64,000 nt of DNA from Candidatus Pacearchaeota archaeon (GCA_017608345.1 JAFCGA010000004.1:57-64056); one strand, 5' to 3'; positions 3 to 24,839 are shown, numbered from the stretch's first letter. Numbers and translations: made by a program. The notes: generated by a model from the sequence alone, not told the origin.

Positions 3-3000
3 TCTCTTAGTGTTAGGGGCGGGGAAATTAGATATGGAAGAGATGTCGCGGGAGGAGTTACTAATCGACAATGCTATTCTGAAGTTGGCGCAAATGATAG
101 TGCATGGCATTTTGTTTCATGGTCTTCAGATGGTACAAAGAATTACTTCAGTTTCGACGGAAGCATAATCACTGACGGAGATATAACTTGCAGCTCAGGT
201 ACAATGGATGGTCTATGGTTCAACGATCAAGCAACCGATACTAATTCGATTGGTGTCTTAGATAGACTCGCAGATGGGGGCTATTTCAACGGTACAATTG
301 ATGAGTTTACTATGTATGATCGAAATCTTTCAGCAGCAGAAATCCATCAACTCTACCTCGGAGGCAGAGACGGCGGCAACATAAGGAACTCTTCCTCGAC
401 TGCTGTTGGGGAGAATTATACTTGCGAAGTTAGACCGTTGGATTATGAAGATTGGGGAATTGCTAAGAACTCAACAAATCTAACTGTGTTAAACACACCG
501 CCGATAACAATAGATGCAAATGTATCTCCGTTCTCTCCAAATGCTAGCGTTGAGCTATTAGGTTATTGTAATTCCTCAGATGAGGACAACGATACGATTA
601 ACTTCTATTACAAATGGTTCCGAGACGGAGTCTTTAACTTGAGTGGGTATAACGGAGGAGCATTTACGCAAGGAATAGAAGTTAATGTTCACAATTTATC
701 AGCAGGAAATACTTCGAAAGGACAGAATTGGACCTTTTCTTGTCTAGCTAACGATGGTACGGTTAATGCTTCTTCTTGGCAGAATGGTTCAGTGGTGATT
801 CAGAGTACGGCTCCAACTCATTTGAACCCAATCTTAAATGCAACTTCCGTTAATAATTACACAACGGATAATCTGACTTGCTATAATCAAAGTACTGCGG
901 ATATAGATTCAGACTACGTTGTCAATAAATACTCTTGGTATAAGAACGGAGCTTTGAACGCTACAACTGTGTTCTTGAATGCTAGCACTGTGTTGTATAT
1001 GCCTTTTGAGCCGAACTTTACAGCTAGCGATAATTCGACTGCGGGAGTCTTAGATTATGCTAGCACTAATAATGGTCGCTTGGGTAATTCTACTGCTGGG
1101 ACTCAGCCTAATTGGATTACAAGTGGAAAGATCGGTGGAGCTTATGAGTTCGATGGAGTTGATGATTATATTGATACTGGGTTCACATTACCTTCTGGCA
1201 GTTCTTTAATGAAAAGTTACGAATTTAGTGTAGCTGCCTGGGTTAAAGTTCCTTCAACTTCTGTCGCGGCAGATAATAGCATCGTAATACGCGCAGACAC
1301 AGCCGGTGGCACGTGTGGTGACTGGAATTTAAGATTAGGTACGACTGGAGATTGGGAGTTTTGGGTTCTGCAGACAGATAATGGTTGGGTGGATGGAACT
1401 GATGTTGCTACAGCAAATTACGCTGCTACAGCTAATGAATGGGTTCATCTAGTAGGTGTATGGAATGGCACGGATAATCTTTATGTAAATGGAGTTCTAA
1501 GAGATAGTGCTTCAGCTACTGGAAACGAAGCTAATGAAGAAACTACGAATATAGAAATCGGTGCGTTTCAGCTCGGCGCTGCAGCAGGATTTCCCTTCAA
1601 CGGCTCAATCGATGAAGTCCAGATCTACAACAGAACACTTTCAGCAGCAGAAATCCACCAGCTCTACCTCGGAGGAAGAGACGGTGGCAACATAAGAGAT
1701 TCTTCCTCTACTGCGACTGGAGAGAATTATATCTGTGAAGTTCAGCCGTTAGACTATGAAGATCAAGGAACAGCAAAGAATTCCACAGCTCTGACAGTAC
1801 TAAACACACCGCCAATTACAATTGATGCAAACGTTTCGCCTTTGACTGTAACCACTTCAATTGATCTGCAAGGATATTGCAATGGAACCGATGTTGATAA
1901 TGCTACGATTAATTATTATTACCGATGGTACAAAGATGGAGCTTTGGACTTGAGTGGTTACAATGGTAACGGTTTTGCGCAAGCATCTGAAGTTAATATT
2001 CACAATCTCTCAGCAGGAAATACTTCAAGGGGGCAGAACTGGACCTTTTCTTGCTTGGCGTATGATGGCCTTTCTAATGCTACTTCGTGGAAGAATGGTT
2101 CTGTGGTGATATCTAATGCAGCTCCAACCCATTCTATGCCTTGGTTGGGAGCTCATGTTCCATTTGGGACTTCGGTAGCTTTGGATGATGGTATCGTTGG
2201 TTACTGGCAGTTTGAGTATGATAATGGAACTCATACGATGGATGAGACTGGGGTTAATAACGGTAGCTTGCAAGGACCAACTCTGAATGAGAGTGGGAGA
2301 GTTGGGAAGGCGTATAGCTTTGATGGTGGGGATTATATTAATACTACTAGTGGTCCAAGCGCAATATCTAGCGATATAACTCTTTCGGCATGGATTAAGA
2401 CAGGGAGCGATGCAACAAGCAGGGCTATCGTTGCATCAAGAGAAGGATCTGCTCCAAATCCCGGATGGGAATTTTTTGTACGTGCTTCAGGTAATGGAAA
2501 TGTGCTCTTATTTCAAAATGACAACGGAGGTTACAGAGTAGGGTCAACAAATGTAAGAGATAATGCTTGGCATCATGTAGTTGGCGTAAGAGACAATGGT
2601 GTTTTCCATGTTTATGTAGATGGAGCAAATGACGATGGTGCAAATACTAATGAAGGAACAGATATGAGCAGTTCAGAGAACACACTAATCGGATTGTCTG
2701 CTGCTAATGTTGGGTCTTATTTCAACGGCTCCATCGATGAAGTAACAATCTGGAACAGATCTCTCTCAGCAGCAGAAATCTCCGAAATCTACAACAAATC
2801 CAGAGGAACTTTCAATACTTACTCCAATGAAGATATTTCTTGCGCTGTTAATACTTCGTCTGACTCAGATGGAGATAATCTAACATATATTTACAATTGG
2901 TATAAGGATGATGCTCCGATGATGGCGCTGTATATGCCTTTTGATCATGATGATTCTGGCGGTGTGAATACTACTAAGGATTATTCTGGCTCTGAGAATC

Positions 3001-24839: not shown

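Follow-up and report, generated by a model that had tools for sequence, protein, structure and literature searches.

The DNA analyzed here, a stretch of 64,000 nucleotides (nt) from a Candidatus Pacearchaeota archaeon (GCA_017608345.1, JAFCGA010000004.1:57-64056) and called the window below, opens with the gene of a giant protein (3..24839, plus strand; 5'-truncated by the window edge), in which laminin G (LamG) domains are set between immunoglobulin (Ig)-like scaffolds. One of its repeat units contains an insert of 402 amino acids (aa) with the features of an intein, and the strand opposite to the middle of this insert carries three contiguous genes, which resemble a toxin-antitoxin (TA) operon. 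The locus is likely to encode a giant, membrane-anchored surface protein of a DPANN archaeon, which is built of old repeats and interrupted by an endonuclease-less intein with an antisense TA operon.

Results

Translated from nt 3, the frame of the giant protein comprises 8,278 codons without an internal stop and reaches its first stop codon at 24837-24839. Since its first residues fall within a LamG domain, the protein extends upstream of the window, and the earlier description of more than 8,200 aa in a frame open to the window edge was borne out. Laminin_G_3 (PF13385, gathering cut-off 27.6 bits) was matched by both query halves of the protein, which shared an overlap of 100 aa, with 12 stretches in aa 1-4200 (874.7 bits, E 4e-267) and 11 stretches in aa 4101-8278 (599.8 bits, E 2e-182). 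Motif searches yielded 21 LamG C-terminal motifs and 11 intact Ig-like domains of about 105 aa. By alignment, seven tandem units of 621-650 aa each occupy aa 603-5467 (nt 1809-16403, 14.6 kb), which agrees with the central 15 kb of roughly 1.9-kb units reported in the original prediction; U2 measures 1,051 aa owing to the 402-aa insert. All of them lie on the plus strand: U1 at 1809-3692, U2 at 3693-6845, U3 at 6846-8786, U4 at 8787-10697, U5 at 10698-12590, U6 at 12591-14453 and U7 at 14454-16403. Within a unit an intact Ig-like domain is followed by a free LamG, the N-terminal half of a split Ig-like domain (about 45 aa, part of scaffold B), a nested LamG and the C-terminal half of the split domain (about 50 aa, the start of scaffold A).

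The insert of U2 (4782..5987, plus strand) interrupts scaffold B, which reads ...AVNNTADAD / CYDEETEILTEKGW ... SPKHKVY ... IYDVDVENNIVLVRRGELVTWSGN / SDNLTYIYNWYKDD (slashes mark the junctions). The six other copies of scaffold B are uninterrupted (...AVNTSSDSDGDNLTYIYNWYKDD) and display the empty site DSD/GDNLTY. Accordingly positioned between D and G/S, the insert gives way to the frame of scaffold B, which is resumed exactly. It begins with Cys1 and ends in Trp-Ser-Gly-Asn, and its splicing residues comprise C1, the block-B sequence S-P-K-H (S-x-x-H), N402 and S+1, where the +1 Ser stands in place of the Gly found at the empty paralogous sites. In family alignments C1, block B, the terminal Asn and the +1 Ser are invariant or nearly so. 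Database searches retrieved ThyX, FolE and RNA polymerase inteins with LAGLIDADG, which match at the two ends, as well as full-length homologues in LamG proteins, and the best sequence match in the PDB was a DnaX mini-intein (E 0.022). In an AlphaFold2 (AF2) model of the intein, residues 1-78 and 335-403 were predicted with a local distance difference test score (pLDDT) of 92-98 and residues 93-333 with 27-44, and the top 50 PDB matches of this model in Foldseek were all inteins, bacterial intein-like (BIL) domains or hedgehog Hint domains (best E 1e-4). Neither a LAGLIDADG nor an HNH family was found in the sense translation of the intein, the central region of which is predicted to be disordered and, in its low-confidence middle, is rich in S, L, N and F. 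These features are those expected of a class-1-type Hint-fold intein without endonuclease, and splicing is predicted. The original prediction for this window did not include the intein.

The central 746 nt of the intein (5007-5752) are spanned by three genes on the minus strand. The first (5570..5752) encodes a 60-aa protein of the ribbon-helix-helix (RHH) type (VapB-like; NF050799, E 8e-7, below cut-off), which clusters with 47 antisense RHH-like open reading frames (ORFs) from other inteins and whose homologues are annotated as Pfam RHH_12. The second (5273..5569) encodes a putative 98-aa antitoxin, RHH-like at the N-terminus and marked in its C-terminal part by the conserved motif W-x-F-C-E-x-I-D-W-H-P-V-D-E-L; no family match was obtained in profile libraries, and homologues were found in two of the loci introduced below, L001 and L003 (E 1e-21 to 1e-22). 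For the third (5007..5276), an 89-aa protein of the RelE/ParE/YafQ toxin family, Pfam and NCBIfam matches were obtained with ParE_toxin (PF05016; 31.5 bits, cut-off 23), RelE_StbE (TIGR02385; 29.3 bits, cut-off 27.9) and the YafQ family (E 2e-16). Genes two and three overlap by 4 nt (ATGA), and this pair is kept in 14 inteins. A TATA-like TTTATAA (5780-5786, minus strand), possibly a promoter element, is situated 34 nt upstream of the first antisense ATG, and between the two lies a palindrome, CCTGTGTATCCACAGG (5763-5778, minus strand), which may serve as operator. By sequence, the three genes are best described as a putative type II TA operon of the order RHH, RHH antitoxin and RelE-type toxin, with toxicity as a prediction.

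Over the same 746 nt the frame of the giant protein contains 0 stops, whereas the two remaining frames of the plus strand contain 17 and 20. When the three antisense proteins were re-encoded with the codon usage of the window, on average 6.1 stops arose in the giant's frame, and the probability of none was 0.0004, which shows selection against host-frame stops in the operon region. The collapse of GC skew in that 2-kb stretch is explained by the minus strand, which there encodes three contiguous genes. In the toxin frame pN/pS amounts to 0.14-0.36 at 55-78% identity, whereas the host frame of the same DNA shows pN/pS >1 at 29-46% identity; thus the toxin gene is under purifying selection.

Relatives of the intein are widespread. 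A scan of 1.84 billion representative proteins gave 3,945 matches, 763 of them with E<=1e-10 and 25 with E<=1e-30; the longest protein that contains a full-length match measures 7,293 aa. Among the full-length examples are P0157 (3,270 aa, with 7 LamG, Big_13 and Intein_splicing at 43.8 bits), P0164 and P0159, and the homologue in P0121 carries PF14890. A scan of GTDB genomes yielded 415 loci, with the best full-length matches in metagenome-assembled genomes of Nanoarchaeota, Woesearchaeota, Pacearchaeota and Altiarchaeota. In the fetched loci (L001-L086) 71 open inteins were delimited by their terminal motifs, and 41 of these, in surface-protein genes of DPANN and Altiarchaeota, possess recurrent antisense families (for example L017:2900-4087, L031:4001-5104 and L009:4001-5278). 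Cargo is of three kinds, RHH with RelE/ParE, RHH with PIN_2, and DUF433 with DUF5615, always antisense and with the antitoxin before the toxin. Counted as clusters over all 71 inteins, there are 47 RHH-like antitoxins (no Pfam family above threshold), 14 RelE/ParE toxins, 22 PIN_2 toxins (best Pfam E 3e-21), 11 copies of DUF433 (best Pfam E 8e-23) and 12 of DUF5615/Mut7-C PIN-like (best Pfam E 1e-14). The combination of PIN with COG2442/DUF433 is a recognised TA pairing (PMC2701414, PMC3834315). Two modules share one intein in L027, L033, L047, L051 and L061. The remaining 30 of the 71 inteins, mostly of the W-C-G-N type (e.g., at the site ...ETGLS/C...N/SDPxMNWR), showed no such clusters and served as internal control.

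A search that started from the TA families and covered all loci gave the same picture, as 103 of 104 genes lie opposite a stop-free frame; in six cassettes examined no stop interrupts the host frame, while the remaining frames contain 9-31. The antisense genes of the window recur in L001 and L003 (E 1e-21 to 1e-33). The sequence TTTAWAW precedes the first antisense gene by no more than 60 nt in 33 of the 41 cargo-bearing inteins, compared with its presence in 7.4% of random windows, often as part of AAAGATTTATATA, and the conserved sense-frame peptide I-Y-K-S-F-D results from the reverse complement of this promoter-like box. Host ORFs of cargo-bearing inteins are rich in N-x-S/T sequons (median 4.4 per 100 aa vs 0.7 for the other inteins); 34 of 41 reach the edge of their locus, and LamG motifs are within reach in 20. 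Two or three cargo-bearing inteins occur in one gene in L003, L049 and L057. In L003:759-4444 (GCA_021731385.1, JAKFXM010000034.1) the host frame appears to switch between inteins 2 and 3 (host ORFs 759-3389 and 3371-4444), which could be due to a frameshift or a sequencing error.

Insertion sites recur as well. The site D-x-S-G-[HY] / S-N-N-G-T, an N-terminal motif of LamG, is used in L008, L013, L015, L018, L023, L045, L049, L050 and L057, and further recurrent sites are TWTNQPYE/.../SNYDLQFL and LGQGQ/.../SEGYSQDT. Although the inteins have no endonuclease, such recurrence suggests that they spread to specific sites. Public gene calls in L003, L004 and L005 are inconsistent, giving either the sense frame as hypothetical protein or the antisense TA genes, and since they split these regions in different ways, host ORFs are fragmented in annotations. 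In the full-text literature, the coverage of which is incomplete, no description was found of natural inteins carrying TA operons or of inteins in DPANN surface proteins.

Returning to the repeats of the giant protein, codon alignments of the seven units gave 84-92% aa and 80-87% nt identity for the scaffolds, with pS 0.38-0.56, dS 0.5-1.2, dN 0.05-0.10 and dN/dS of about 0.1. Mean nt identity is 84.5% in scaffold segment A2, 86.5% in B (U1-U6) and 82% in A1. The value of more than 90% claimed originally was too high: a self-blastn of nt 1-24839 produced 99 plus-strand high-scoring segment pairs (HSPs) of >=150 nt with a median identity of 78% and a maximum of 91.7%, and only five of them, all short pieces of scaffold B, attain 90-91.7%. 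The longest exact direct repeat in the gene measures 87 nt, and the associated warning of a strong assembly hazard was likewise overstated. As synonymous sites are much diverged while dN is low, the chief conserving force on the scaffolds is purifying selection on the protein. The LamG cores in the same alignments share 23% aa and 40% nt identity, with a saturated pS of 0.72, dN of about 1 and a dS that is not measurable because of synonymous saturation; in aa identity they are, as had been anticipated, far less conserved than the scaffolds.

Superimposed on this is a weaker signal of exchange. Where two units agree in an amino acid, they also agree in the codon in 61-77% of cases in scaffold pairs and in 43% in the LamG cores, an estimate that misalignment can dilute, with 39-43% expected at saturation; scaffolds coalesce more recently than cores, since only the former exceed saturation. 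The identity matrix of U1-U6 is star-like (0.82-0.87 for all pairs), parsimony-informative scaffold sites back many mutually incompatible groupings, and concordant polymorphic sites are clustered in all three scaffold segments (sum of squared run lengths, P<0.001), also when third codon positions are taken alone. For this, our own Sawyer-type permutation was applied to U1-U6 only, since the diverged scaffold-B half of U7 inflates runs. U7 (14454-16403) is chimeric: its scaffold B turns midway into sequence of the flanking 'H-type' modules described below (...DNSTAGVTDYSGNNNDGRLGNSTAGTQP...) and its second LamG starts H-type, which indicates recombination between two unit families. These observations point to occasional short-tract conversion or recombination between scaffold copies as a weaker second layer of homogenisation. 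Concerted evolution by gene conversion, as envisaged in the original prediction, is thus retained for a conversion-like mosaic, but not for the bulk of scaffold conservation, given the dN/dS of about 0.1.

A profile of scaffold A, scanned against metagenomes, found no close relative, the best match, with 54% identity along 108 aa, being to an unrelated leucine-rich-repeat protein. In this metagenomic protein (L087:1266-1592) an Ig-like domain of the scaffold type, 54% identical, lies beside leucine-rich 'FNQDIGGWDTSNV' repeats, and from its presence there the scaffold Ig-like domain can be seen as a shuffled module.

The LamG domains were located by motif positions, all on the plus strand, with one pair per unit: 2307-2768 and 3072-3536 in U1, 4191-4679 and 6192-6689 in U2, 7344-7826 and 8130-8630 in U3, 9285-9719 and 10023-10541 in U4, 11199-11642 and 11946-12434 in U5, 13089-13544 and 13848-14297 in U6, and 14952-15440 and 15747-16247 in U7. 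Five more follow towards the C-terminus (16722-17201, 18006-18524, 18990-20048, 20859-21341, 21807-22289). The 20 complete cores have a mean pairwise identity of 21.5% (range 13-39%), and similarity is equal within and between position types (0.22 vs 0.22), with no clustering by position. The essentially unique sequence of each LamG and the retention of the C-terminal motif (G-[ST]-I-D-E-V...L-S, in 21 of 21) could be confirmed, but not a universal W-H-H core, as W-x-H was matched in 18 domains and W-H-H proper in only about eight.

When the halves of the split Ig-like domains were joined, their profile (n=13 pairs) aligned with that of the intact Ig-like domains, and the alignment runs through the junction (hhalign probability 95.7%, E 8e-9). 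On this alignment we infer that the second LamG of each unit and every flanking H-type LamG sit in an Ig-like loop, 13 nested domains in total. The LamG at 18990-20048 is exceptional in its core of 327 aa, compared with about 135 aa in the others, and contains a Cys-rich insertion of 188 aa (19203..19766, aa 6401-6588, plus strand) without a Pfam family, hence a domain inside a LamG, with this LamG in turn enclosed by a split Ig-like domain.

Sequons are unevenly distributed. The ectodomain contains 354 N-x-S/T in 7,789 residues, where 144 +/- 11 are expected from composition, a 2.5-fold enrichment that upholds the very high density noted originally. Scaffolds hold 5.1-6.6 sequons per 100 aa vs 1.8 in LamG cores, and most other proteins of the window, including all with cytoplasmic-type domains, have 0-1.5. 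This pattern would fit glycan-shielded stalks that present bare binding heads.

The array is flanked on both sides by H-type modules on the plus strand. In the N-terminal flank (3..1808), the scaffolds of which are about 86% identical in nt to the H-type modules at 17339-18034 and 20192-20887, a partial LamG (3-332) is followed by an intact Ig-like domain (498-812) and a LamG nested in a split Ig-like domain (1137-1643). The C-terminal H-type modules (16404..22445) include intact Ig-like domains at 17367-17681 and 20220-20534. The last intact Ig-like domain (22446-22760) belongs to a segment at 22446..23882, in which Big_13-type Ig repeats were recognised (best match 23064-23321, Pfam Big_13 E 1.8e-7; Glucodextran_B). 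A stalk and anchor module (23610..24674) leads into a hydrophobic, probably transmembrane helix (24576-24632) and a Lys-rich tail of 68 aa (24633-24836), both read from the translation and, by the predicted topology, membrane-spanning and cytoplasmic, respectively.

Genes in the neighbourhood encode FEN1, a PHP phosphoesterase, a DEAD helicase, a TyrRS/TrpRS-type synthetase, TruD, Cdc48 and a Hel308-type helicase; a search for tRNA genes in the window gave none. The closest named relatives of FEN1 are from Woesearchaeota, Nanoarchaeia and 'DPANN group' (55-58% identity), and a search with whole units retrieved only LamG proteins of 31-35% identity from Nanoarchaeota, Micrarchaeota and Altiarchaeota. 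Archaeal neighbours, FEN1 kinship and DPANN LamG proteins as unit homologues all speak for the DPANN-type host proposed before. A neighbourhood of surface proteins extends over 32528-47473 on the minus strand. It comprises a LamG protein of 376 aa (32528-33658, minus strand), only 23-30% identical to the LamGs of the giant, a PQQ/beta-propeller protein (34559-36589, minus strand), a type-IV-pilus-like locus (36631-40428) with T2SSE and two T2SSF genes, four tandem Kelch-repeat paralogues of 476-490 aa, two sequon-rich ORFs and small pilin-like ORFs (DUF7289). The C-terminal 335 aa of the beta-propeller protein (34559-35569) are homologous to the anchor module of the giant (tblastn, 27% over 361 aa, E 9e-24), which suggests that stalk, transmembrane helix and basic tail form a cell-surface anchoring module common to both proteins.

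Discussion

The giant protein is probably C-terminally membrane-anchored, and heavy N-glycosylation is predicted. A chain of Ig-like domains would act as stalk and scaffold, presenting 21 LamG domains of the ConA-like lectin fold, 13 of them in split Ig loops. The repeats would be old duplicates, in which the scaffolds are held by purifying selection with minor short-tract conversion and the LamG cores have diverged to saturation. As to function, a role in multivalent binding, most likely of glycans or glycoproteins on host or substrate surfaces, is plausible from the number and divergence of the LamG domains and is in line with what has been published for LamG proteins of DPANN archaea (PMC5498576, PMC10266531).

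For the intein, translation of the giant mRNA through the complement of the operon would yield a disordered linker of about 250 residues at the position usually taken by the endonuclease. The Hint domain would fold around this linker and splice the intein out, by which the Ig-like scaffold would be restored, while the operon would be transcribed independently from its own B recognition element (BRE)/TATA promoter and autoregulated at the palindrome. Genes with their own stops can be nested in this way in antisense orientation only, because TAA, TAG and TGA become TTA, CTA and TCA in the frame directly opposite, and the operon would be written in codons that avoid sense-frame stops, so that the giant ORF stays open. 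Two roles, not mutually exclusive, can be envisaged for such an arrangement: the intein may be a phenotypically silent landing pad for TA modules in a compact genome, or the operon may render the intein addictive and counter its erasure by conversion from intein-free paralogous repeats, a threat that follows from the conversion between copies detected in the scaffolds of this gene. On a slightly better than even estimate, the inteins of DPANN and Altiarchaeota surface proteins represent an undescribed composite selfish element, in which an autonomous, promoter-bearing antisense TA operon, drawn from at least three unrelated families, occupies the endonuclease slot.

Several points weigh against this interpretation. 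The penultimate residue of the intein is Gly (W-S-G-N) and not the usual His, and this Gly is kept across the family, although inteins without penultimate His are known. The copy in the window scores 15.5 bits with Pfam Intein_splicing, below the threshold of 35.8 (E 0.015), and the folding and splicing of a Cys1 intein are hard to place in the route of a Sec-exported protein. In the 98-aa antisense gene, sense and antisense codons have their wobble positions in common, and patterns of substitution therefore do not reveal the strand under constraint. As regards the host protein, its N-terminus with the signal peptide falls outside the window, the order of the repeats is that of the assembled sequence, and an AF2 model of a segment comprising scaffold, LamG, scaffold and Ig, computed from an alignment of five paralogous sequences, had a mean pLDDT of 37, which leaves the nesting to the profile alignment only. 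Furthermore, the gene-conversion test was a home-made implementation, and the lower synonymous divergence of the scaffolds may partly reflect codon bias or misalignment of cores.

With respect to the repeats, it is possible, though doubtful, that the scaffolds are near-identical chiefly through ongoing gene conversion and that the LamG cassettes form a built-in library of specificities under active diversification. The higher same-codon fraction in scaffolds (0.61-0.77 vs 0.43 in cores), the star-like identities with incompatible site patterns and clustered concordant sites, the 87-nt exact repeat together with stretches of 90-92% in scaffold B, and the U7 chimera with the H-type N-terminus of its second LamG would all agree with this. 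However, scaffold DNA of only 80-87% identity and a dS of 0.5-1.2 imply that conversion is slow or old, the dN/dS of about 0.1 implies that selection at the protein level does most of the conserving, and positive selection on the cores is unmeasurable at saturated dN and dS, apart from the fact that cores do not cluster by position. Unlikely, too, is a shuffling of cassettes, in which LamG cores were imported from or exchanged with other LamG genes and the scaffolds served as homology arms. Cores that are older than scaffolds at synonymous sites, no higher similarity within than between types, the chimeric U7 and the occurrence of the Ig-like domain type in other surface-protein contexts would suit it, but neither silent cassettes nor scaffold copies, nor indeed a nucleotide copy of any part of the giant gene, exist elsewhere in the 64-kb window, its sole other LamG gene (32528-33658) is no more than 23-30% identical, and identity fades over about 40 codons at the borders of scaffold and core without sharp breakpoints. 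Templated hypermutation of the LamG domains by a diversity-generating retroelement or a comparable system, a mechanism the original prediction wished to see excluded, has nothing in its favour beyond the variability itself and is extremely improbable; it was rejected within the window, where no reverse transcriptase was detected among ORFs of >=150 aa and no template repeat was present, and the cores differ throughout (about 40% nt identity) rather than at adenine-specific positions of an otherwise identical repeat.

That the array or the insert is an artefact or chimera of the assembly might be suspected in a repetitive gene that may run to the contig end, but is very unlikely: copies differ by 13-20% in DNA with no exact repeat beyond 87 nt, a single frame of 24.8 kb stays open, the intein is inserted into scaffold B without any shift of frame and is followed by the Ser needed at +1, and the design of intein plus antisense operon is found in more than 40 independent assemblies. 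The Hint domain could alternatively be a BIL-like autoprocessing module, which cleaves the giant protein and has only incidental antisense ORFs. Its residence in a secreted, variable protein, as is the case for BIL domains, its penultimate Gly instead of His and the presence of BIL domains among the top structural matches lend this some credit. Nevertheless, the whole family retains Cys1, S-P-K-H, the terminal Asn and the +1 Ser, a nucleophile that only ligation requires and that stands where the empty sites have Gly, and the antisense genes are under purifying selection, match PIN_2 (E 3e-21) and DUF433 (E 8e-23) and possess conserved promoter-like boxes, so that this explanation appears rather improbable. 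An old repeat protein with a splicing-type intein and a genuine antisense operon is hence preferred.

Proteins of this general kind are not new. Expanded LamG proteins tied to pilus loci are known from DPANN archaea and were proposed to mediate host contact (PMC5498576, PMC10266531), and giant DPANN surface proteins of up to 9,409 aa have been described (PMC10266531). The giant protein belongs to these kinds, being unusually LamG-rich. With the LamG proteins of Micrarchaeota Mia14 (PMC5498576) and the nanohaloarchaeal LamG/PKD proteins (PMC10266531) it shares Laminin_G_3, a predicted extracellular location, lineage specificity and the linkage to a type-IV-pilus-like locus (here 36631-40428), but it comprises at least 21 LamG in more than 8,278 aa, compared with up to five per nanohaloarchaeal protein (PMC10266531), and differs in its regular two-LamG unit, the 13 LamGs nested in split Ig domains, and the conserved scaffold set against unique cores. 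In common with the SPEARE-type giants of Nanohaloarchaeota (8,880-9,409 aa; PMC10266531) it has a length of more than 5,000 aa, Ig-like arrays, a membrane anchor and a DPANN host. However, a Pfam scan of the whole protein revealed no VirB4/TraG-like ATPase and no coiled-coil tip was detected, and as a LamG-dominated protein with a C-terminal transmembrane helix and Lys-rich tail it is not a member of the SPEARE family. In comparison with the repeats of bacterial surface adhesins under concerted evolution, which are mosaic, conversion-like and typically near-identical in DNA, the mosaic pattern is alike, but synonymous divergence is large and conservation is found mainly at the protein level.

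The intein has in common with canonical inteins the Hint fold, Cys1, block B T/SxxH, terminal Asn, +1 nucleophile and in-frame insertion, the homology to ThyX, FolE and RNA polymerase inteins and a large insertion at the endonuclease position. Unlike these, it has no endonuclease, its penultimate residue is Gly, its hosts are giant, sequon-rich and repeat-rich extracellular proteins, and its insertion is non-coding in sense, disordered, S/L/N-rich and the reverse complement of an autonomous TA operon. BIL and polymorphic-toxin Hint domains are structural neighbours and likewise occur in secreted, variable and often giant proteins. BIL domains typically lack a +1 nucleophile, whereas the full set of splicing residues, including the conserved +1 Ser, is present here, together with the antisense operon and the archaeal host. 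The operon itself resembles type II TA modules (PMC2701414, PMC3834315) in the order of antitoxin and toxin, the 4-nt overlap, toxin family matches above threshold, the palindrome between TATA box and start codon and the association with a mobile element; it departs from other type II modules in being nested antisense in the coding sequence of an intein, with codons that keep the opposite frame stop-free.

Conclusions

Overlapping coding is extreme in this locus, as over about 750 nt one strand encodes three proteins and the other avoids every stop. Annotators should be aware that gene callers split or mis-strand such intein-operon regions, and a natural intein that tolerates a disordered insert of 250 residues would be of interest for protein engineering. 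The repeats correct the idea that arrays of this kind must be held together by recent gene conversion. With presumably glycan-shielded Ig-like stalks and bare, unique lectin-fold heads, the giant protein may be viewed as a natural modular display scaffold, and it is a candidate for a factor by which uncultured episymbiotic archaea recognise their hosts.

The persistence of inteins is usually ascribed to homing endonucleases or to decay into mini-inteins within essential genes. The family described here lives in non-housekeeping extracellular proteins, often with several copies per gene, and appears to bear addiction modules in place of endonucleases. Provided that the operons are expressed, two kinds of selfish element would here cooperate in a novel manner.

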